Program-made: the position numbers and the translations under genes
The notes under the pieces: generated by a model
The model's input: only the letters and a program-made list of their open reading frames with translations
The model's database searches: none
Told to the model about the DNA's origin: nothing
Shown here: piece after piece, positions 20,834 through 55,906 of the stretch
Layout: every line of letters starts with the position of its first letter
Numbering within the stretch: position 1 is the first letter of the stretch
DNA from: Patescibacteria group bacterium
GTDB lineage: Bacteria > Patescibacteriota > Minisyncoccia > Ryanbacterales > GWA2-47-10b
Direction of reading: 5' to 3'
Assembly (NCBI GenBank): GCA_038064855.1
Contig: JBBTSE010000007.1
Location: 87,699 to 151,698 of the forward strand
Length of the DNA: 64,000 nt

Positions 20834-20905
20834 GGCCCTATCGTCTAACGGCTAGGACAAGCGGTTCTCATCCGCTAAATCGGAGTTCGATTCTCCGTGG
20901 GGCTG
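20834..20905 (+). tRNA. tRNA-Glu (anticodon CUC)
   Basis: Cloverleaf readable by eye: acceptor GGCCCUA/UGGGGCU, 3-bp D-stem GTC..GAC as in tRNA-Glu, anticodon stem AGCGG/CCGCT with loop TTCTCAT (CTC), T-arm CGGAG-TTCGATT-CTCCG; CCA not encoded. Confidence 0.85.
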
Positions 20906-45954: not shown

Positions 45955-46860
45955 TTATGGTAGCATACCTCCGGTCCGAAGGAGGAGGGATGACGCCTCA
46001 ACGACTCGCTGACTTGGCTCGGCGCCCAAAAGTATGAGTACTTGGGGCCTTCCGAGTATTGGTTCGTAAATAATGATGATTGATTCACCAGCGGTTTCCG
46101 TGGTACCGGTCTTGCTACCTACAAAATTGATAATATACGGCGTCAGAACATTGCTGTTGGTAAGCAGGTGGCCATCTTGTCCAAATGAAACAATTTTTTT
46201 GTCTGCTTCGCGCGATGGTTCCCATAAAATCGGCGTTTTCATCGATGCGCGTATAAGTTTAAGAAGATCGTTTGCTGAAGAAAAATTACTTGACTCGTAG
46301 GTCGGTAAATCAAGGCCAGTAGGATTGCGGTAGAGCGTATCATGCATATCGAGCGTGCGTGCACGCCCATTCATCGCTACTACAAATCGTTCTATCTTTT
46401 CATCAAAGGTCTTACCGCCAAGCCTCTCGCCTACAGTCTCGGCTATCGCCATCGCCATATCATTTGATGATGGCATCATGAGCGCATAGAGTGCATCACG
46501 CAGGGCAAATACTTCGCCTTCATGAAAATTTCCCACCTCACCTTGCGTCCCTACTGCTTCTTTTGAAAGAATGATCGGCGTGTTGAGTGGCAAAATCTCA
46601 AGTGCCAATAAACCCGTCATGACTTTGGTGATGCTCGCGATTGGCCTGCGTTCACCCGTGGCCCGCTCTGCTGTACGCCAGGTGCCACCAAGATCCGCTA
46701 CCAGCACGCTTTGTGCGGTATAGGTGCTATCGAGTACCACATGGGCTGGCGGAGGCAATGGTACCAACGGCTCTGCGGGAGGTGCGAGTGCAGGAATGAT
46801 AATACCAAAAGCGGCCAAAAAGCCCGCGACAACCGTGACAGCACTTGGAAAATCACTCAT
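45955..46860 (-). CDS. D-alanyl-D-alanine carboxypeptidase (S11, PBP5/6-like)
   Basis: Signal/TM N-term; SITK (SxxK), SSN (SxN), KTGTT (KTG) motifs. Confidence 0.8.
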   Translation of the reverse strand: MSDFPSAVTVVAGFLAAFGIIIPALAPPAEPLVPLPPPAHVVLDSTYTAQSVLVADLGGTWRTAERATGERRPIASITKVMTGLLALEILPLNTPIILSKEAVGTQGEVGNFHEGEVFALRDALYALMMPSSNDMAMAIAETVGERLGGKTFDEKIERFVVAMNGRARTLDMHDTLYRNPTGLDLPTYESSNFSSANDLLKLIRASMKTPILWEPSREADKKIVSFGQDGHLLTNSNVLTPYIINFVGSKTGTTETAGESIIIIYEPILGRPQVLILLGAEPSQRVVEASSLLLRTGGMLP

Positions 46861-47395
46861 GGTCTTTGAGGTCTTTTGCTATATCGTCGTAGCTGGGTAA
46901 CTCCGCGCTTGATGTAATACCAAGGTATTTGAAAAGATCGAGTGTCGGGCGATACAAAAAGACGCGCGCATCTTGTTCGTCTTGTGAGCGTTCGATGAGT
47001 CCGCGAATGAGAAGCGCGCGGAGTGCAAATGCCGAGTTGACGCCACGCACATAATCAATAGCTGAGCGTGATACGCGGCCTTTCCATAAAATAATCGCGA
47101 GCGTCTCGAGCTGTGAGCGCGTCAGATCCCCCTCGAGTCGTTCTTTAGCGATGCGGCCTGATACTTCACTAGTCTCGGGCGCGGTGACGAGCGTATAAGT
47201 ATCTTCACTCTGCAAAAGCCGTATACCGTGATCGGCAAGACTTTCTTTGAGTATCTCGAGTGTCTTGGCTACCTCGCGCTTGTCAGCGCGAGAAAGACGC
47301 GCCAAATCTTTGAGTGCCAATGGCTCGCCTGACACAAATAAAAGCGCTTCGAGTGACTGGGGTAGATTATTGTTATTCTGTTCGTCCATGTTCAA
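46853..47395 (-). CDS. scpB: segregation and condensation protein B
   Basis: Two winged-helix repeats (LEALLFVSGEPLALKDLARL...); downstream of scpA. Confidence 0.85.
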   Translation of the reverse strand: MNMDEQNNNNLPQSLEALLFVSGEPLALKDLARLSRADKREVAKTLEILKESLADHGIRLLQSEDTYTLVTAPETSEVSGRIAKERLEGDLTRSQLETLAIILWKGRVSRSAIDYVRGVNSAFALRALLIRGLIERSQDEQDARVFLYRPTLDLFKYLGITSSAELPSYDDIAKDLKDHE

Positions 47396-48098
47396 TATGT
47401 ATTAAATCAAAATTTGACGACTGACGCACGGCAATGGCGCCAAGCTTGATAAGTTCGAGCATCGCCAAAAAAGTAACCACGACTGTCACCCGTTCTGCCT
47501 TACTGCCCACAAAATCATGAAAGGTTTTTACCATGCCGCTCGAGATACGCTCTTCGAGTTCTTTGATTTTCTCTTCGATTGAAATAATTTTCTTAACGGT
47601 GCGCTGGGGTAATTCATTTTTTTGCGGGATTGCGGCGATAATCTCACGCAACAAAAAGATCATGCGATTGAGATCAATACCTTTTGCGGGCGGTAGAAAT
47701 GACGGTGCGACAAGCACTAGGGGTTCACGCCCAAAGAGCTCTTGGCGAGCTTTGACGCGTGCGCCGAGCGCGTCAGCCATATGTTTGACGATTTGGTAGG
47801 CCCGCAGACGCTCTTCGAGCTCTTTAATATCACCCTCTTCTTCATGCGTGAGTATGAAGCCCGGCAAAAGCGAGCGCGATTTGATGAGGATAAGAGTCGA
47901 GGCGATGACCAAAAAATCAGCAAGCTCTTCGTGGTAGCTTTCACCAAGCTTTGCTTTGAGATCTTCGATATAACGAAAATAATCCTCAGTGACGGTACCG
48001 AGTGATATCTCATTGATCGAGAGTTTTTTGGTCTCGATTAGATCGTAGAGGAGCTCGAGTGGCCCTTCAAATTTTTTGACGCGTACTTTGTATGCCAC
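47373..48098 (-). CDS. scpA: segregation and condensation protein A (kleisin)
   Basis: FEGPLELLYDLIETKKLSINEISLGTVTEDYFRYI N-terminal kleisin motif; 241 aa. Confidence 0.85.
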   Translation of the reverse strand: MAYKVRVKKFEGPLELLYDLIETKKLSINEISLGTVTEDYFRYIEDLKAKLGESYHEELADFLVIASTLILIKSRSLLPGFILTHEEEGDIKELEERLRAYQIVKHMADALGARVKARQELFGREPLVLVAPSFLPPAKGIDLNRMIFLLREIIAAIPQKNELPQRTVKKIISIEEKIKELEERISSGMVKTFHDFVGSKAERVTVVVTFLAMLELIKLGAIAVRQSSNFDLIHIEHGRTE

Positions 48099-48112
48099 GC
48101 GTGTAGTATAGC

Positions 48113-49513
48113 CTATGCGGCGGGTTTTTTCTTTATTTGGATTCCAAATTCGAGAAGTTGTTCTGGTGATACATCAGTGGGCGCGTCCATCACAGCAGTT
48201 TTACCACCCGCAGTCATAGGAAATGCCTGCACTTCGCGAAGTGCGGTCTCTCCCGCGAAACACATGGTGAGGCGATCAATGCCAAGCGCAATGCCGCCGT
48301 GAGGCGGCGTGCCTCGGCGAAATGCTTCTAACATGTGACCATATTCGCGTTTAATCTTTTCATCATCAAAGCCCATCACCCCCAATACTTTTTTAAGCAC
48401 TTCGGGTTCATGCGCACGGATACTGCCGCCACCCGCCTCATAGCCGTTAAGTACCAAGTCATACTGGTCAGCGATGATTGACTCGATCTCACCTGCCAAA
48501 AGTTTTTCGCGATGCTCGGGTACGGTGTTTGAAAACGGGTTATGGGTAAAGGTCCACCCACCGCCATCAGTATGTTCAAAAAACGGAAAGCGCGTCACCC
48601 AGGCAAACGCAAGCGTGCCATCTTTCTTGTCCTCTTCGGTTCGGAGATCAAATTTATCTGCGCCAAATTTTTCCATAGCTTCAGCATAGGTAAAGCGCGG
48701 AAACGGTGTTTCTTTTATTTTTTTGCCGAGTTTGTGCGCAACCTCAATCATCGTACCCTCAATGATATCGAGTACATCTTCTTGTTTTACAAAACTCATC
48801 TCAACATCAAGTTGGGTATGCTCAAATCCCCTGTCTGCACGCAAGTCTTCATCGCGAAAGCATCGGGCGATTTGAAAATATCGTTCAAAACCTGATGCCA
48901 TGATCAGCTGTTTATACTGCTGTGGGCTTTGCGGGAGTGCGTAGAACTGGCCTTGCTGAAGGCGTGATGGAACCAAAAAATCTCGTGACCCTTCGGCGGT
49001 GGCTTTCGTCAGATACGGCGTTTCAATCTCGACAAATGATTTTGCAAAAAGGTACTGGCGGATAGAGTCTACGAGTTTTGATCGTAGACGGATGTTGTGT
49101 TGGAGACGCGCACGACGGAGATCGAGATATCGATATTTGAGGCGCACTTCCTCACTTACTTCGTAGCCATCACCTGCTAATTCAAATACCGGAGTTTCCG
49201 CGGAGTTCAGTATGGTGATACCTTTGACTTCGATCTCAACACCGCCTGTTGGCAATTTATCATTTTTCATTTTAGCGGGGCGCTCTTTGACAAGTCCTTG
49301 CACACCAATCACCCATTCGGTGCGTACTTGGTCGGCCGTATCGTGCAAATCTTTGTTGTCCGGTGGTACTACCATCTGTACTACGCCTGATTCATCACGC
49401 AGATCGATAAAAATCAATTTGCCATGATCGCGGCGTACATCAACCCAGCCCGCAAGCTCGACTTCTTTGCCTACATGATTTGGCGTATCTATAATATGAA
49501 TCCGCTGTTCCAT
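48113..49513 (-). CDS. aspS: aspartyl-tRNA synthetase, bacterial-type core lacking GAD insertion
   Basis: OB-fold N-domain; motif 2 FYALPQSPQQYKQLIMASGFERYFQIARCFRDEDLRADRGFEHTQLDVEMSF; motif 3 GGIALGIDRL; region where GAD domain normally sits reduced to ~20 aa; start at Met MEQRIHI. Confidence 0.85.
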   Translation of the reverse strand: MEQRIHIIDTPNHVGKEVELAGWVDVRRDHGKLIFIDLRDESGVVQMVVPPDNKDLHDTADQVRTEWVIGVQGLVKERPAKMKNDKLPTGGVEIEVKGITILNSAETPVFELAGDGYEVSEEVRLKYRYLDLRRARLQHNIRLRSKLVDSIRQYLFAKSFVEIETPYLTKATAEGSRDFLVPSRLQQGQFYALPQSPQQYKQLIMASGFERYFQIARCFRDEDLRADRGFEHTQLDVEMSFVKQEDVLDIIEGTMIEVAHKLGKKIKETPFPRFTYAEAMEKFGADKFDLRTEEDKKDGTLAFAWVTRFPFFEHTDGGGWTFTHNPFSNTVPEHREKLLAGEIESIIADQYDLVLNGYEAGGGSIRAHEPEVLKKVLGVMGFDDEKIKREYGHMLEAFRRGTPPHGGIALGIDRLTMCFAGETALREVQAFPMTAGGKTAVMDAPTDVSPEQLLEFGIQIKKKPAA

Positions 49514-49532
49514 AGATTTCAATATATCAGGA

Positions 49533-49565
49533 AACAAAAACTCCGCATAGTGCGGAGTTTTTGGT
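49533..49565 (-). terminator. rho-independent terminator after giant surface-protein gene
   Basis: AAAAACTCCGCA-ctat-GCGGAGTTTTT hairpin then GTTTCC; 22 nt upstream of aspS ATG. Confidence 0.6.
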
Positions 49566-49584
49566 GCCTGCGCCGAAAGGAAAA

Positions 49585-52500
49585 CTATTGCCCGAGAGCT
49601 GACTGCAAGCCCAGTAGCATGTTGCGAAGGCCTTGCAGGGTATCTGCAAGAGCATTCACATCATTACCGTTCACAGCTGCCGTTGGTCGTGGGATATTAA
49701 ACTGCGTTTCTGAACAAAGGATATTAGTTGCATCACTCGTACCCCATTTCCAGAAACTCGCTTGATACCTACCGTAGGCGTTTGCGTGATCCGCCGCGCT
49801 CAATGTCACATCATAGGTAGTTGAGTTGATCACAGTCCATGATCCGCGGCCAACCCATGTGGCGGTACCGACACCGCGCGAGAGATTCCAGAAACCAACT
49901 GAATCAGGTAGGGCGGTACCTTTGACGACACGGAGTTTTACCAAGCCACCGCCAAGTTGAGTGACACTCGTCACCGAACATTCACGGTTATTGTATGTTG
50001 GCGCTTGAACTGCCGCAGGAGGTGGCGGAGGTGCTACGGGTGGTGGGGGCGGCGCTACGAGAGTACCAGTGCCAGTGATAGTAAGAGTGCAAGATGATCC
50101 AGATGTTCCATCATTGCGCTTTGGCGTGATGGTTACGCGCGCGGTACCCGCTTCACGCATGTAGAGATTACCCCATTGCCCCGTTGAACGAAGATCGTAC
50201 GGAGTTGGAGAGGACATGAAATCTCTAAAACACTTGTATGGGTACGGGAAGTAATTTGGATCAAAGGTGCCATCAGTGCGCTTACCGCAATCAACCGTTC
50301 CAGCCCATGGAGTTGAGACGGTGATATAATCAGCATTTTCCCATGCCCATGGAACTTCAAATCGATCACCTACGGTTTTTGTAACAGACGAATTGCCAAG
50401 GGTTCCATTGAGGCGACAGCGAGGTGCTGCGGGAGCCGGCGGCGGAGGTGGAAGTGTCGCACCTTGGCCACTACCTGCTGGTGGATAACATTGCTGCGGA
50501 GGTGTAGGACTTATCACTGAATTACGATTGTGATCAAAGTGTACACACGCGCAAGTAGTACCAGCACCATCGCCATCATATGTACCGCCAGTTGTACTGC
50601 TCCAGTCGTTGGCACATGCAGTAGGTGCTGGAGGCGGAGGTGGAGGGGTTGGGCCGCCTCCTGATGTAGTGATAGTAAGCGCACATGGTGCGCCACTAGC
50701 GCCGTCATGACGCTTTGGTGTCGCGGTTACATTGGCACTACCCGCTTCACGCATATAGAGATTGCCCCACGTGCCCTGCGTACCAAGATCATATCCACCG
50801 CCACTTGCAGTACGTAAGAATGCCGCGCGACATGAATACGGAGTTGTATAGCTTGGATCAAACCGGTCACCTACTCCATCACCATTATCATCGTAGTATC
50901 CGCAATCAATTGTGCCACTCCAACCAGGGCCTGCGACTGAAATATAATCAGCGTTGGTAGCCGCCCACGTTACGCCAAAGCGCGTATTGATTGCTTTGGT
51001 AGTACCGCCTGGAGTTGGTGTGAGTGTACATGATGGAGGTGGCAAAGGGCCTGCGGGAGGTGGTGGTGGCAGTGGCGCTGGTGGAGGGGGCGGAGGTAAG
51101 TCAGGTGTGGGGATAGTGATGGTATTACCTGATTTTACAAAGTCATATGTCACGCACTGTCTGTCATCGGTCGCGTCGTTGGGCCTCCCCCAGAGCCAGA
51201 TATTGACACCGTACCGACCATTGCCAAAGTTGCCATCAGAGAGTTGTGTTGCGGTCAGTGTACCTTGGAAAGTATTTGATGCGCCAATGCGTGTACCTTG
51301 CGGCCACTTGGCGAGCTCATATTGGCGAACACCATTGCGTACTGGATAGACACCAAACGACATCGAGTTACCACCGGTCACATCAAATGCGCGAAGGGTT
51401 ACTGTGCCTGCCACAGTACCTACGGCCGCATCACCACCTGAACAGTTCAAAGGTCCTGCGGGTGGTGGGGGCGGCGGTGGAGGTGCTGGGTTTGGATCGT
51501 AGAGCAACACACTACAGCTCTCTGATTGGATACTGCCATCCGTACGATGTAAGAAACTTACACCTTGGTTCATAGAACCGTTGACTGATTGCCAAGTAAC
51601 CGTAAAGGTCTGACCGCCAGACTGTTGGCGTGGTACCGCACCCAAAGGCGAATTCCATTCTACGGGAGTTGCGCCGTATGCAGTAAAGGTCACTGACTCA
51701 CTAATCGCTGCAGTTGATTTGTTTGCTGTGCAATAAAACTGCTCCTCTACAGATCCACACGCTACTTCATCGGCGGTACTAGTAGGACCACCGCAACTAC
51801 CATTTGCGGCACCGGGGCCAGGGCCACCGGTATATTGAGGGATCGCATCAATACCAGGTCTCCACGATCTCCAGTCAGGTACGCATTTACCAGTTTGCGA
51901 GATGCGTCGCCCAGGGCGAGAGCCATCGGGGTTTTTATCAGTGCCCGGCAAGCTCCACCATCCTTGTGCCATACCGTATACTTGCGCGTTCACACTATAG
52001 TCCTGCATGCAGAGTGGCAATTGGCCGGGACCGGTAGCAAGAGATTCAGGCGAGGCATAGGTGCTCGCGTGTGATTCTGGTAAAAAGTCAGCGTACGCAG
52101 GAGGAATGCCCATCCATTTGTAAGGGCCATCTTGTCCAACGCGTCGCGCGATATAGCGTGCGGCAAGATTCCATTGACCTGACCTTGTTGGGATACCATT
52201 GAGATTGAGTGCGCGTGTCCAGTTTGAATTCCACGCCTCTGCTACGAGATGCGCGTAGCCGTACGCATCTTGACCGTCATTAAATGTCGGAGTACTCGGT
52301 GCACTTGGTGAAGTTTTGTCGCCACCGTTTGGCCAGTTATATTTACCGGAGCATCCGCCTGCGTTAATACCACCGACAGGAAGATTGCTGATATTGCACG
52401 CATGATAGGGACCCCAGGGGTTTCCAGAACTACCGCCTGTAGTACCCCAAGTAACTTTAGTTGGATCAAAGCCGGGTGGGCAGAATCTACCAAGGTATCG

Positions 52501-54096
52501 TTGTTGCGCGCCCGTATCACAGCCAGTGGTACCTCCTTGGCGAATATCTGCGGTGATATTGTCACACGGCAATATAAAGGGTGCGCAAAATTGAAGCTGA
52601 TAGTTGCCACGGCTCGGAAACACTACGGTGGGATCTTGCCCTTGGTTGTTTGGCTCAAAGGTTACGCCGCAGTTACCGTCACCACAGGCTGCGCCATCTT
52701 TTGAGGTGACTTTCCACATCACAAAGCCATTGTTTTGGATATCGTCACGCTTTGCTCCATTTACATACACTGAACCATTGAGATACGCATAGAGTTTGCC
52801 ATCGTCGCGCGAGAAGGTACCCGAGACATTGCCACCAGCGTTCACATAGGTGTTTGCCGCGCTACCACCGGGACGCAAAAAGTCTTCAGCTACCCAGCCG
52901 AGTAAGCTACCAAAATTTACCTTCCACCATTGATACCAAACTCCTCCAAGCTTTGCCGGTATTGCGGGACTCGCAGCGATAGTCCCTTGTGCCCCTGCAT
53001 TGCGCGTCGCTGTCCAGGAGCCGCCGGGCGCGCCGCGTACATTGACGCCGTTTTCTGTTGTCTCAACACTCTGACCATTTGAGAAACTAGTCGATGGTGT
53101 AGGACCGGCGAGTGCCGTAGTACATACGGGAGTATCGTTGGCATTGTTAACATCGTCGACAATACTGTCACCAGTGCCACCATTACAGATAGGTGCTGCT
53201 ACCGGACATTGAGCCGGTGCGTTCCAACAGTAGATAGCGAAGCCATCACCGTTGGTATCTTTTCTTTCACACTTTTGATAGTTAATTGCGTTTCTACAGC
53301 GATAGGTATTTACCTGACCTGCTGAGCATGAGCCGTAGGTCGCGTTACAAGTTTCTGGTTCAGTGCCTCCACCAGGCAAGGGAACTCCTTGGCGATTGGT
53401 TGCCAAAAATCGAAAATATATGGTCGCAATGTTTCCTTCCGTTACAGTAAAGGTCGCGGTATCGCCACGCGTCCAACTACCAGAGCGTCCACAGTCAGCG
53501 CCACCACTACATACATTGTATTCGGGGTCGCGATATTCTACATCACCTTGCGTGCGCGGAGTCAGCGCGGTGATTGTGTGTTGTCCGGGTTCGAGATCAC
53601 GCGTTTCGTAAAACCCACCGCTCGTGGTGATGCGCGTACGCGAGTCGACATCAAGCGCGGCTTCTACATATTGAAATGAGTTTTGTGTTTGTACCACATA
53701 GCCATGCACACCTGCTGGATTTTCTGTGGTACGGGTGACGCAGTATGTTTCTTCCAAGCTTTGTTTACCGTTGACCATGACATACACGCGGTATCCGCAG
53801 CTCGAGCGAAAATCGCGCGTGACAGTAAATACATCAGAGACCCATCGGCCATCAGCGTTGGTGCGACCAAGACTCATCTGAGGGTTTGAATAATTTCCTT
53901 CCCAATTTGATGCGACGACGATCACGTCAGCGGTTGTGTCCGCGCCCGTGACAGTGAGCGTGATCGAATCGCCTGTGCTGTATCTATCCGCATTAAGTTG
54001 AAGGCGTGGAGTGCCCGCCCATGCGAGTTGCGGCGCCAACATGGCTACGGCAACAATACCGACCAAACCCCATCTCGTGAACAATCGTGTACTCAT
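49585..54096 (-). CDS. giant secreted/cell-surface protein (1503 aa) with polyproline linkers and repeated modules
   Basis: Signal peptide MSTRLFTRWGLVGIVAVAMLAPQLAWAG; five Pro5-10 linkers; two homologous ~120-aa modules (…NADYISVAGPGWSGTIDCG…GNLYMREAGSANVTATPKR… and …NADYITVSTPWAGTVDCG…GNLYMREAGTARVTITPKR…); Gly/Thr/Asn-rich beta-type composition. Confidence 0.8.
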   Translation of the reverse strand: MSTRLFTRWGLVGIVAVAMLAPQLAWAGTPRLQLNADRYSTGDSITLTVTGADTTADVIVVASNWEGNYSNPQMSLGRTNADGRWVSDVFTVTRDFRSSCGYRVYVMVNGKQSLEETYCVTRTTENPAGVHGYVVQTQNSFQYVEAALDVDSRTRITTSGGFYETRDLEPGQHTITALTPRTQGDVEYRDPEYNVCSGGADCGRSGSWTRGDTATFTVTEGNIATIYFRFLATNRQGVPLPGGGTEPETCNATYGSCSAGQVNTYRCRNAINYQKCERKDTNGDGFAIYCWNAPAQCPVAAPICNGGTGDSIVDDVNNANDTPVCTTALAGPTPSTSFSNGQSVETTENGVNVRGAPGGSWTATRNAGAQGTIAASPAIPAKLGGVWYQWWKVNFGSLLGWVAEDFLRPGGSAANTYVNAGGNVSGTFSRDDGKLYAYLNGSVYVNGAKRDDIQNNGFVMWKVTSKDGAACGDGNCGVTFEPNNQGQDPTVVFPSRGNYQLQFCAPFILPCDNITADIRQGGTTGCDTGAQQRYLGRFCPPGFDPTKVTWGTTGGSSGNPWGPYHACNISNLPVGGINAGGCSGKYNWPNGGDKTSPSAPSTPTFNDGQDAYGYAHLVAEAWNSNWTRALNLNGIPTRSGQWNLAARYIARRVGQDGPYKWMGIPPAYADFLPESHASTYASPESLATGPGQLPLCMQDYSVNAQVYGMAQGWWSLPGTDKNPDGSRPGRRISQTGKCVPDWRSWRPGIDAIPQYTGGPGPGAANGSCGGPTSTADEVACGSVEEQFYCTANKSTAAISESVTFTAYGATPVEWNSPLGAVPRQQSGGQTFTVTWQSVNGSMNQGVSFLHRTDGSIQSESCSVLLYDPNPAPPPPPPPPAGPLNCSGGDAAVGTVAGTVTLRAFDVTGGNSMSFGVYPVRNGVRQYELAKWPQGTRIGASNTFQGTLTATQLSDGNFGNGRYGVNIWLWGRPNDATDDRQCVTYDFVKSGNTITIPTPDLPPPPPPAPLPPPPPAGPLPPPSCTLTPTPGGTTKAINTRFGVTWAATNADYISVAGPGWSGTIDCGYYDDNGDGVGDRFDPSYTTPYSCRAAFLRTASGGGYDLGTQGTWGNLYMREAGSANVTATPKRHDGASGAPCALTITTSGGGPTPPPPPPAPTACANDWSSTTGGTYDGDGAGTTCACVHFDHNRNSVISPTPPQQCYPPAGSGQGATLPPPPPAPAAPRCRLNGTLGNSSVTKTVGDRFEVPWAWENADYITVSTPWAGTVDCGKRTDGTFDPNYFPYPYKCFRDFMSSPTPYDLRSTGQWGNLYMREAGTARVTITPKRNDGTSGSSCTLTITGTGTLVAPPPPPVAPPPPPAAVQAPTYNNRECSVTSVTQLGGGLVKLRVVKGTALPDSVGFWNLSRGVGTATWVGRGSWTVINSTTYDVTLSAADHANAYGRYQASFWKWGTSDATNILCSETQFNIPRPTAAVNGNDVNALADTLQGLRNMLLGLQSALGQ

Positions 54097-54188
54097 ATCT
54101 GTAAGAGTTTTGTAAATAAAAAATAAAAATGAATAGTGCGACCTATTGCTGTTTATTATATGGTAATTGCGCTCAAGCTTGCTTGTGT

Positions 54189-54228
54189 ATAAAGAAAAAA
54201 GATGATTTTTATAGAAAAACCATCTTTT
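54189..54228 (-). terminator. putative rho-independent terminator after histidine kinase gene
   Basis: On minus strand AAGATGGTTTTTC-tat-AAAAATCATCTT hairpin followed by TTTTTTCTTTA. Confidence 0.45.
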
Positions 54229-54277
54229 ACCCAGAAAAATCCGTACCAGCTTAAAGGTTTGTAAACCTTACTAATTA

Positions 54278-55906
54278 TTAATTCTTTTTCTCTATATCAA
54301 GCGGTAAGAGCATAAAGAAGGTGCTGCCTTTGCCTTTGCCGGGTGAAGTCGCGCCAATAGATCCGCCGTGAGCTTCTGCGATGAGTTTAGCGACATACAA
54401 ACCGAGGCCGAGACCTTCGGTATGAGTCGCCTTCTGTTCTTTGCCGCGTACAAATTTTTGGAAAAGCTTGCGTGATTCCTCTAAACTCAAACCCGGCCCC
54501 GTGTCAGTCACTGAAAATCTGATAGCATCACCTTCTTGCACGAGCTTTACTACTACGGTTCCTGACGGCGTATATTTAAACGCATTGTCTACAAGATTGA
54601 GTGCCACTTGGCGAAGCTTGTTGCTATCACCACTCATGGCATCAGTCTTAAAATCTTTTTCCCATACCAGTTTCATCTTTTTATTTTTTGCCACGATCTG
54701 AAAATCAGTGACGATGGGGTCAAGGATCTCATTGAGATGTACGGGCTTCATATCAAACTGCATGCGCCCACGCTCCATGCGTGAGAGATCGAGCAAGTCA
54801 TTGACCAAGGTGATCAGGCGCTCATTTGATACATATACTTTTTCCAGAGGATCATGAATCTTTGTCTCAAGCTTGCCGTAGGTGCCCTCGCGCATCATGG
54901 AGATATATCCTTTGATGATCGAGAGTGGCGTGCGTAGCTGGTGTGATGCGATAGAGATAAAGTCAGACTTGGCTTCATCAAGCCGTTTGAGATCAGCGTT
55001 TGCAACTTCAAGATCTACCGCCAACTTCTCCATCCGCTCACGAAGTTTTACTTCTTGAAGTACGGAGCGTATGAGGAGGATACCGAGAGCGAGAGATCCG
55101 GTGAATAGAATAGAACCTAATACAACATCATATGCATCTCGCGCCGCAAGTAGCCGTACTAGAAGTAAGACCCAAAGTGCAAAGGTTAATAATTCTGTAG
55201 CAATAACTTTTACATCAAGTAATCGGTATTTAATAATTGCATAGCTGGTAAAGATGATAAATGGGAAAAAGAAAAGTGGTACAAACGGAATAAAAACTAA
55301 AATTTCATATACTGTCGGCAGTATAAGATTAAAAGTCAGCACCAAAGAAAAAGTGATGACTGTACCGAAGAAGATAAGTTTATATTGAGTGCGTTCAAGA
55401 CCCACCGCTCGACGAGCTTTTTTAAATAATACTACCAAGGCGGCAAGAACCAACCCTAAAGATACAAAGCCAAAAACTGGGAAAGCAGGTCCCTGCACTC
55501 CCTTTGCTACTTGATCAATAGATGGTAAATGTTCTAATCCTTCAAATACATAAGGAGTAAGAGTCAGTCCCGCAGCTATAATGGTTATGGGCCAAAAAAT
55601 ATATTTATAGATAGGAGGAATTTTCTGTGCTTCGTTTGGAAACACAAGAAACAAGTAGAAAATAGAAAAGGCGTGCCAAACCGCGAAAAAGAGAGTTAAT
55701 CGTAAAAACCATAGTATATACAATGAAGACCAACCATCTTGGTTGCTCATAAAATTAAAAGTTGCGTAGACAATTGTTAGTAGTGTGAATAAAAGAAATA
55801 TTCTGTTCGTAATACTTTTCCGATTATTCACAAACACAACAATCCCAAGTATGGCGATAGCTATACTAACTAAGCTGATAGCAACAAGATTAAAATTACT
55901 CGCCAT
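54278..55906 (-). CDS. sensor histidine kinase with ~8 N-terminal TM helices (orphan, no response regulator in window)
   Basis: Polytopic N-domain; HisKA H-box SHQLRTPLSII; HATPase_c N, G1 (DTGPGL), G2 (GLGLGL) boxes. Confidence 0.85.
   Translation of the reverse strand: MASNFNLVAISLVSIAIAILGIVVFVNNRKSITNRIFLLFTLLTIVYATFNFMSNQDGWSSLYILWFLRLTLFFAVWHAFSIFYLFLVFPNEAQKIPPIYKYIFWPITIIAAGLTLTPYVFEGLEHLPSIDQVAKGVQGPAFPVFGFVSLGLVLAALVVLFKKARRAVGLERTQYKLIFFGTVITFSLVLTFNLILPTVYEILVFIPFVPLFFFPFIIFTSYAIIKYRLLDVKVIATELLTFALWVLLLVRLLAARDAYDVVLGSILFTGSLALGILLIRSVLQEVKLRERMEKLAVDLEVANADLKRLDEAKSDFISIASHQLRTPLSIIKGYISMMREGTYGKLETKIHDPLEKVYVSNERLITLVNDLLDLSRMERGRMQFDMKPVHLNEILDPIVTDFQIVAKNKKMKLVWEKDFKTDAMSGDSNKLRQVALNLVDNAFKYTPSGTVVVKLVQEGDAIRFSVTDTGPGLSLEESRKLFQKFVRGKEQKATHTEGLGLGLYVAKLIAEAHGGSIGATSPGKGKGSTFFMLLPLDIEKKN

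Follow-up and report, generated by a model that had tools for sequence, protein, structure and literature searches.

Patescibacteria, the candidate phyla radiation (CPR), account for a large part of bacterial diversity and seem to live in attachment to other cells; to our knowledge, their contact molecules are largely unknown beyond type IV pili and a few Saccharibacteria adhesins. Whether a contact molecule may be encoded by the largest gene in a 64,000-nucleotide stretch of DNA from a Ryanbacterales member, hereafter the window, is the question addressed here (GenBank assembly GCA_038064855.1, contig JBBTSE010000007.1, positions 87,699 to 151,698 of the forward strand). The gene is an open reading frame (ORF) at 49585..54096 on the minus strand that starts with ATG and encodes 1503 amino acids (aa). 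No other ORF in the window exceeds 881 aa, which makes this the longest one, in agreement with an initial annotation made from the DNA letters alone, which had also proposed a secreted candidate adhesin or host-interaction factor.

The balance of the evidence tilts modestly towards a Sec-exported, disulfide-stabilised, modular and surface-tethered binding protein of adhesin-like build, belonging to a Ryanbacteria-like Patescibacterium. After export by Sec and oxidative folding, the N-terminal head (aa 28-868) would present ligand-binding modules, namely two beta-sandwiches, an 8-Cys module, a bacterial SH3 (SH3b) domain, a PKD-like domain, a domain here called M4 and an Ig-like domain. The most likely ligand would be cell-wall or glycan material, either on a host cell or in the bacterium's own wall. 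The C-terminal third may serve as a stalk of four Ig/FN3-like modules (A1, B1, B2, A2) and a 4-Cys mini-module, held apart by five polyproline spacers that are presumably rigid polyproline II rods, and a clade-specific amphipathic helix with heptad leucines would then tether or oligomerise the protein at the envelope. Sequences and models establish the export signal, the boundaries between modules, the fold classes of SH3b (at family level), B2 and A2, purifying selection, synteny and the swapping of modules among orthologs. What we infer is adhesion as such, together with the ligand, the orientation of the protein and a part for the tail in tethering. Large Cys-rich exported proteins have been proposed as attachment factors in CPR bacteria (PMC4736985), and in Saccharibacteria protein adhesins are required for epibiotic growth (PMC10633639).

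Architecture of the 1503-residue protein

About 14 modules are distinguished along the protein. They are listed from the N-terminus to the C-terminus, all on the minus strand, with related proteins given by P numbers.

54016..54096, minus: Sec-type signal peptide, aa 1-27, predicted cleavage between A-W-A and G
53722..54015, minus: N1, aa 28-125, probable Ig-like beta-sandwich with a Cys100-Cys119 pair, common to P0005 and P0006
53362..53721, minus: N2, aa 126-245, probable prealbumin-like beta-sandwich of CarboxypepD_reg/SdrD_B type, homologous to P0005, P0008 and P0009
53092..53361, minus: Cys-rich module, aa 246-335, with 8 invariant Cys, common to P0005 and P0008
52852..53091, minus: divergent SH3b, aa 336-415, with family-level matches
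52495..52851, minus: PKD-like beta-sandwich, aa 416-534, by transitive homology via P0007
51742..52494, minus: M4, aa 535-785, conserved and mostly helical, matching no known family
51493..51741, minus: M5, aa 786-868, probably Ig-like, common to P0005, P0006 and P0007
51457-51492, minus: polyproline linker 1, aa 869-880 (runs 870-880), preceding A1
51097..51456, minus: A1, aa 881-1000, paralog of A2
51034-51096, minus: polyproline linker 2, aa 1001-1021, preceding B1
50653..51033, minus: B1, aa 1022-1148, Ig/FN3-like, 4 Cys
50623-50652, minus: polyproline linker 3, runs aa 1151-1158, between B1 and C
50452..50622, minus: C mini-module, aa 1159-1215, 4 Cys, flanked by linkers 3 and 4
50431-50451, minus: polyproline linker 4, runs aa 1216-1220, between C and B2
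50059..50430, minus: B2, aa 1223-1346, predicted Ig/FN3-like beta-sandwich
50011-50058, minus: polyproline linker 5, aa 1347-1362 (runs 1348-1362), preceding A2
49687..50010, minus: A2, aa 1363-1470, predicted beta-sandwich
49588..49686, minus: tail, a Ser/Thr/Ala spacer and amphipathic heptad-Leu helix (…NALADTLQGLRNMLLGLQSALGQ-COOH), helix modelled at aa 1477-1501

The export signal noted in the initial annotation is clear. The N-terminus (MSTRLFTRWGLVGIVAVAMLAPQLAWA, followed by G) combines a basic n-region with a hydrophobic core and the A-W-A site; it contains the sole hydrophobic 19-mer of the protein above a Kyte-Doolittle value of 1.6, and it is kept in the orthologs. The Gly/Thr/Asn/Trp-rich composition described there also holds (G 12.4%, T 10.5%, N 6.1%, W 2.7%), together with 9.0% each of A and P and 2.8% C. 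Of 42 Cys in total, 34 are invariant across all four orthologs, and the remaining 8 fall within modules that are missing from one ortholog. The five proline runs of the same description correspond to five linkers, in which seven runs of at least 4 Pro are grouped. As these runs draw on mixed CCN codons and DNA tandem repeats are absent from the gene, the linkers are a feature selected at the protein level; an origin by slippage or tandem repetition is ruled out on the same grounds.

Two homologous modules of about 120 aa with conserved Cys pairs had been recognised in the initial annotation, and these are B1 (aa 1023-1147) and B2 (aa 1227-1344), with 51% identity over 127 columns (E 2e-38). 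Four Cys are shared between them (1023/1227, 1065/1270, 1089/1289, 1138/1336) and are nearly invariant in the B modules of other proteins, which include P0006, P0009, P0012 and P0013. Recent gene conversion between B1 and B2 is ruled out by a nucleotide identity of 59%. A second duplicated pair, missed at first reading, is formed by A1 and A2, which align over their full length and share a conserved Cys pair; the C-terminal third is therefore arranged as A1-B1-C-B2-A2, a mirror-like order. A-type modules were found in no protein beyond the four orthologs. The C mini-module is mobile and is also present in P0006, P0007, P0009, P0010, P0012 and P0025.

An AlphaFold2 (AF2) model of the B2-A2 region, built from a 15-row alignment anchored by one chimeric row, shows two all-beta sandwiches followed by a helix at aa 1477-1501 (predicted local distance difference test, pLDDT, 75). 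Compared with the PDB by Foldseek, the model gave 50 matches at E<=1e-3, all of the tandem FN3/Ig type; those at E about 1e-4 include the cohesin-FN3 structure 2w1n at the top, contactins, Sap, GhpA and RbmA. B2 and A2 are thereby predicted to be beta-sandwiches resembling the tandem FN3/Ig modules of adhesion, scaffold and surface-layer (S-layer) proteins.

Among the head modules, the assignment of SH3b is supported by profiles of its family: Pfam SH3_3 is matched by 15 of the 34 aligned members (best 3.5e-6), and the family profile finds SH3 domains in the PDB at E 0.004-0.02, including the SH3b of the phage lysin 4krt. The copy in the window protein has no SH3_3 match at E<=0.1. Relatives of this SH3b subtype adjoin NlpC/P60 and M23 peptidase domains, that is, wall hydrolases. 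The PKD-like module has no direct Pfam match in the window protein; its aa 424-535 align with aa 28-131 of P0007 (E 2.9e-5), a stretch that matches Pfam K319L-like_PKD at E 1e-6. N1 resembles an Ig-like domain of the Bacillus anthracis S-layer protein Sap at a non-significant profile E of 0.16. For N2, the window protein yields only a weak Pfam match (CarboxypepD_reg, E 0.65), and the homologous stretch of P0005 matches SdrD_B at E 1.8e-4, below the cut-off. The sequence pattern of M5 suggests an Ig-like domain.

The protein ends in a tail that is a portable, clade-specific C-terminal module, because differently built proteins of a few lineages end in it. Its final ~22 residues (ALADTLQGLRNMLLGLQSALGQ) make up an amphipathic helix in which Leu/Ile recur at the a/d spacing of a heptad, and which has a single basic residue and no hydrophobic stretch. 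Seven such tails have a mean hydrophobicity of -0.04 to 0.24 and a hydrophobic moment of 0.31-0.53. The pattern of the tail is [LI]A[ND]TL[QED]G[LI][RK]xx[LI]xx[LI][QK]xxLxQ-COOH. Tails of the identical type close five differently built secreted proteins (P0007, P0010, P0012, P0013 and P0025), all recovered via modules other than the tail, and there the tail comes after an SH3b domain instead of after A2. A degenerate DNA pattern of the tail, run against 185,579 species genomes, gave four true matches, in two Patescibacteria metagenome-assembled genomes (MAGs) with two proteins each; in a metagenome collection 5 of 8 matches were true and came from the same few lineages, the other 3 not being C-terminal. 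No match at E<=10 was obtained with the tail profile in the word-index protein search, and none of the NCBIfam sorting-signal models (PEP-CTERM, GlyGly-CTERM, PGF-CTERM, the T9SS C-terminal domain and others) matches the window protein or its nine relatives. The likeliest role of the tail would be oligomerisation as a coiled coil or docking to an envelope partner. Tail-bearing proteins number at least two per genome in a few Ryanbacteria-like Patescibacteria, and the tail was also noted at loci L003, L006, L007, L008, L013, L014, L016, L017 and L020.

Relatives, selection and module exchange

The protein is rare. When 1.84 billion cluster representatives were searched exhaustively by HMMER with aa 28-1200 as the query, 49 proteins were found at E<=1e-3 and 11 at E<=1e-10, and most of the 49 matches cover one 80-aa stretch at aa ~333-415. 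Nine large secreted modular proteins (P0005-P0013) carry differing subsets of the remaining modules. The word-index search returned 4 proteins for the whole sequence and 2 for the N-terminal profile. The four closest proteins, at 72-82% identity, are from Patescibacteria MAGs, one of which is named Candidatus Ryanbacteria. Relatives bear the additional binding modules CBM_4_9, Big_7 and SH3_3, and none has a known catalytic domain.

The gene is functional and native. Its frame is unbroken in four lineages, and pairwise dN/dS (omega) is 0.08-0.13 overall and 0.04-0.25 in every module, where dS is at or near saturation for most modules (0.2-2.6) and not computable for several. The gene order, comprising a histidine kinase, the big gene, aspS, scpA, scpB, an S11 peptidase, an mraY-like gene and an amidohydrolase, is the same in two related genomes. 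Readings as a pseudogene or artefact, the former named in the initial annotation as a possible objection, are rejected by the intact frames, purifying selection and conserved synteny and Cys. Horizontal or recent acquisition is rejected likewise, since the G+C content at third codon positions (GC3) equals that of the neighbouring genes and synteny is kept.

Within this stable frame whole modules have been exchanged between orthologs. P0002 has no module C, P0004 carries an unrelated Ig-like module in place of B2, and linker lengths vary. Between the window protein and P0002, dS is ~1-2 over the N-terminal two-thirds and 0.3-0.5 in B1 and B2 (94-98% aa identity), a mosaic that suggests a recombination event spanning the C-terminal stalk and from which breakpoints close to linker 1 are predicted. 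In a further genome, H41, the position upstream of aspS-scpA-scpB-S11-mraY is filled by P0012, a protein of 754 aa and different composition which has only the B, C and tail modules in common with the window protein (the H41 contig, L003/L014, was compared with window positions 46853-54096). The locus thus behaves like a slot that takes surface proteins with the tail, their heads being shuffled from lineage to lineage. In H41, M4 belongs to P0007, whose gene occupies a second conserved locus, upstream of a gene pair encoding 396 and 681 aa, and a shuffling of modules has taken place between the two surface-protein slots. The expectation in the initial annotation that such proteins vary between strains therefore holds for whole modules (C, B2, the linkers and the H41 locus); hypervariability is not seen, given the 72-82% identity, the low omega in every module and the fixed synteny.

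Binding protein, wall enzyme or surface lattice

The region that bears most on the choice between functions is M4. It occurs in the large relatives P0005-P0008 and P0010 and in three shorter proteins, P0011, P0042 and P0047. In a 12-sequence alignment nine residues are invariant (P573, G576, G584, E620, N623, N633, Y659, G663 and P673), of which E620, within the motif (I/V)EAxNxNW, is the lone acidic one. The AF2 model is mostly helical (pLDDT 79, predicted template modelling score 0.74) and places E620 near the C-terminal end of a helix. Per-module structure prediction, proposed in the initial annotation, thus gave beta-sandwiches for B2 and A2, and for M4 a model without a Foldseek match in the PDB (best E 2.5) or BFVD (best E 5). 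Profile searches of PDB sequences and Pfam with all 12 members found none either, and PHROGs returned nothing for M4, P0042, P0047 or P0011. A Cys-His catalytic pair in the motif GPYHACN was considered and ruled out, as it is not conserved in P0005, P0010 and P0011.

The genomic context of the small M4 proteins is suggestive of a wall- or lysis-related role, on the basis of two short metagenomic contigs. The gene of P0047, a protein consisting of M4 with a signal or anchor at its N-terminus, immediately follows a GH108 + PG_binding_3 gene, and endolysins in 870 phage records match that preceding gene, mostly from phages with Gram-negative hosts. P0042, with an N-terminal transmembrane (TM) segment, is located four genes upstream of a phage small terminase. 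Scans of IMG/VR with M4 and the small M4-only proteins confirmed nothing, and tblastn of P0047 and M4 against 50,697 GenBank phages gave no match. The loci of P0047 and P0042 are L009 173-1908 and L010 349-2767, and the product of the gene that follows P0047 is a secreted protein in which a polyproline run of 13 residues occurs.

The observation in the initial annotation that there is no recognisable catalytic motif is correct in so far as Pfam, NCBIfam and PDB sequence searches with the protein, its segments and its relatives reveal no catalytic family; homology to a characterised enzyme family, which that annotation regarded as decisive against its proposal, was likewise absent there. This does not make the protein non-enzymatic, because the conserved M4 carries an invariant Glu, is always accompanied by SH3b in the large proteins and counts a neighbour of a phage endolysin among its small homologs. 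M4 might accordingly be an undescribed muralytic or glycan-active domain with Glu620 as catalytic acid, delivered to the wall by SH3b, PKD and the Ig stalk, for remodelling of the bacterium's own wall or for breaching the host wall in epibiosis. We hold this, the main rival reading, to be unlikely, though by no means negligible. In its favour are the position of M4 as the conserved core of the family, with its Glu-containing motif at a helix end, and the presence of SH3b in every large M4 protein with no other catalytic domain in them, an SH3b whose subfamily also sits in NlpC/P60 and M23 hydrolases. The two phage-like contexts speak for it as well, as does a layout recalling secreted glycoside hydrolases of modular build, which have FN3 modules and Pro-rich linkers and to which the top Foldseek match belongs. 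However, M4 is unlike any catalytic family in Pfam, NCBIfam, PHROGs, PDB sequence profiles or Foldseek comparison with the PDB and BFVD, it has just one invariant acidic residue, and the phage link was reproduced neither in IMG/VR nor among the GenBank phages. Moreover, the phage beside P0047 already owns an endolysin, and P0047 may for this reason be a spanin-like accessory rather than an enzyme.

An S-layer-type envelope protein, which would form a surface lattice instead of binding a partner cell, is quite improbable. The large size, secretion and Thr/Gly/Asn-rich composition would suit it, Ig-like domains of B. anthracis Sap appear among both Foldseek and profile matches, and the C-terminal helix could drive self-assembly. 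But the Sap matches are to generic Ig-like folds, non-significant in sequence profile, and neither SLH nor any other domain for S-layer anchoring is detected by Pfam and NCBIfam; long polyproline spacers and as many as 42 conserved Cys are atypical of such proteins, and the module-swapping mosaic suits an extended fibre better than a lattice. Hardly credible is an origin as prophage or mobile-element cargo, such as a tail fibre or receptor-binding protein, or as a decaying or chimeric ORF. The Foldseek list does contain Ig-like modules and phage tail-tip structures, and small M4-like proteins lie on phage-like contigs, but the gene has housekeeping surroundings (aspS, scpAB, a penicillin-binding protein gene, mraY-like) that are syntenic in related genomes, a GC3 like theirs, an intact frame under purifying selection in four lineages and a Sec signal peptide.

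Several points weigh against the surface-tethered binding protein that we prefer. Binding and location at the surface are things we infer, and the SH3b, N1 and N2 modules of the window protein all lie under Pfam thresholds. The protein has no recognised anchor, be it LPXTG, SLH, LysM, a lipobox or a TM segment, so that the check for sortase and S-layer motifs proposed in the initial annotation came out negative and tethering via the tail is a conjecture. M4 is the most conserved part, and its invariant Glu, together with the lack of a known fold, would fit an enzyme too. The gene is conserved and syntenic, not hypervariable, and its Cys content of 2.8% is under that of the CPR 'C-rich' set (7.2 +/- 2.4%, PMC4736985). 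The earlier proposal of an adhesin or host-interaction factor thus stands for what it says of architecture and origin, the protein being secreted, non-membrane, multi-module and adhesin-like in layout in a small-genome Patescibacteria lineage, with adhesion itself a presumption.

Comparison with known systems places the protein near several of them. In the manner of MSCRAMM/Sdr/Cna proteins, it combines an N-terminal Sec signal, a putative N-terminal ligand-binding region, Ig/prealbumin-like stalk repeats comparable to their 'B' repeats, a Pro-rich segment near the C-terminus and a possible C-terminal retention element, and the N2 module of the relative P0005 bears a weak likeness to SdrD_B. 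It differs from them in having neither LPXTG nor a hydrophobic/basic C-terminal sorting signal, no family-level Pfam or NCBIfam match, a head with SH3b, PKD and M4, and an amphipathic helix at its end. Because the LPXTG sorting signal, the defining test, is absent, it is not an MSCRAMM member, although its mode of working would be alike. With SH3b-targeted wall hydrolases, such as lysostaphin/ALE-1, NlpC/P60 and M23 autolysins and the endolysin Psm (4krt), it shares the SH3b-type module, assigned through its family profile, whereas it is far larger, has a polyproline/Ig stalk and lacks a recognised catalytic domain; no peptidoglycan hydrolase domain (NlpC/P60, M23, amidases, GH25/GH108/SLT) was found by Pfam and NCBIfam in the whole protein or its segments.

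The large Cys-rich extracellular proteins of Peribacteria (Anantharaman et al. 2016, PMC4736985) resemble it in CPR origin, in exceeding 1000 aa, in having a signal peptide and many Cys, in a role in attachment that has been proposed for them, and in varying between strains or lineages. They differ in their higher Cys content, and that set was described by its composition, not by domains. Modular secreted carbohydrate-active enzymes, exemplified by Clostridium perfringens GH84C (2w1n), share the beads-on-a-string build, FN3/Ig modules, linkers rich in proline and, at the C-terminus, a small module potentially able to dock to a partner, and the relative P0005 ends in a CBM_4_9-like module. In contrast to these enzymes, no glycoside hydrolase, dockerin or cohesin domain was detected in the window protein.

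Gene surroundings and significance

Both flanks of the gene had been characterised in the initial annotation, as an AT-rich upstream region and a terminator of its own, and both features are present:

54097..54277, minus: upstream intergenic region, 181 nt, GC 28.7% against 48% window-wide
49585-49587, minus: stop codon
49535..49563, minus: intrinsic-terminator-like hairpin with a 13-bp stem, 3-nt loop and U-tract, 22 nt past the stop

The upstream gap contains a perfect TATAAT at 54155-54160, with no good -35 and no obvious Shine-Dalgarno sequence, and a promoter scan of the gap found no sigma-70-type site. The hairpin folds with a dG of -20.3 kcal/mol (z -4.2), lies between the stop codon and the likely start of aspS (ATG 49513), and was overlooked by a consensus terminator scan. 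In the program-made ORF list aspS opens at TTG 49537 on the minus strand, inside the hairpin. Its true start is probably ATG 49513, because the orthologs have 466 aa; this gives a 71-nt gap containing the hairpin. The upstream neighbour (54278-55906, minus strand) encodes a histidine kinase whose sensor domain is of the 7-TM type (HisKA_7TM in the ortholog); it adjoins the big gene in both related genomes examined, and no response regulator was seen beside it. The remaining window is housekeeping in content (mreB-like, mur ligases, ftsW-like, several tRNA synthetases), and one tRNA at 20834-20905 (plus strand) is the sole Rfam match in the 64 kb.

A bolder proposal, which we consider rather improbable, is that M4 is a new muralytic or glycan-cleaving fold common to Patescibacteria surface proteins and endolysin-adjacent phage proteins, and that the tail is a new clade-specific anchoring or oligomerisation tag. 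Were it true, the protein would be a surface-anchored tool that opens the host cell wall in epibiosis, and the tail would bring together two or three different modular proteins of each genome in a single surface assembly.

As it stands, the protein represents a variation, restricted to its lineage, on the theme of modular surface proteins. For the Ryanbacteria lineage, its gene is a concrete, conserved and syntenic candidate for a contact molecule with clear module boundaries. It offers two separable, testable pieces: M4, of ~250 aa, with a confident predicted structure and no relatives detected in Pfam, the PDB or viral structures, and the shared C-terminal helix. Failing a special role for either piece, the protein would be just another modular surface protein confined to one lineage. 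Should M4 prove enzymatic, a new wall-active family would be gained, and should the helix prove to be a tag for assembly or for retention at the envelope, it could serve to draw up a catalogue of the surface proteins of these uncultivated organisms.

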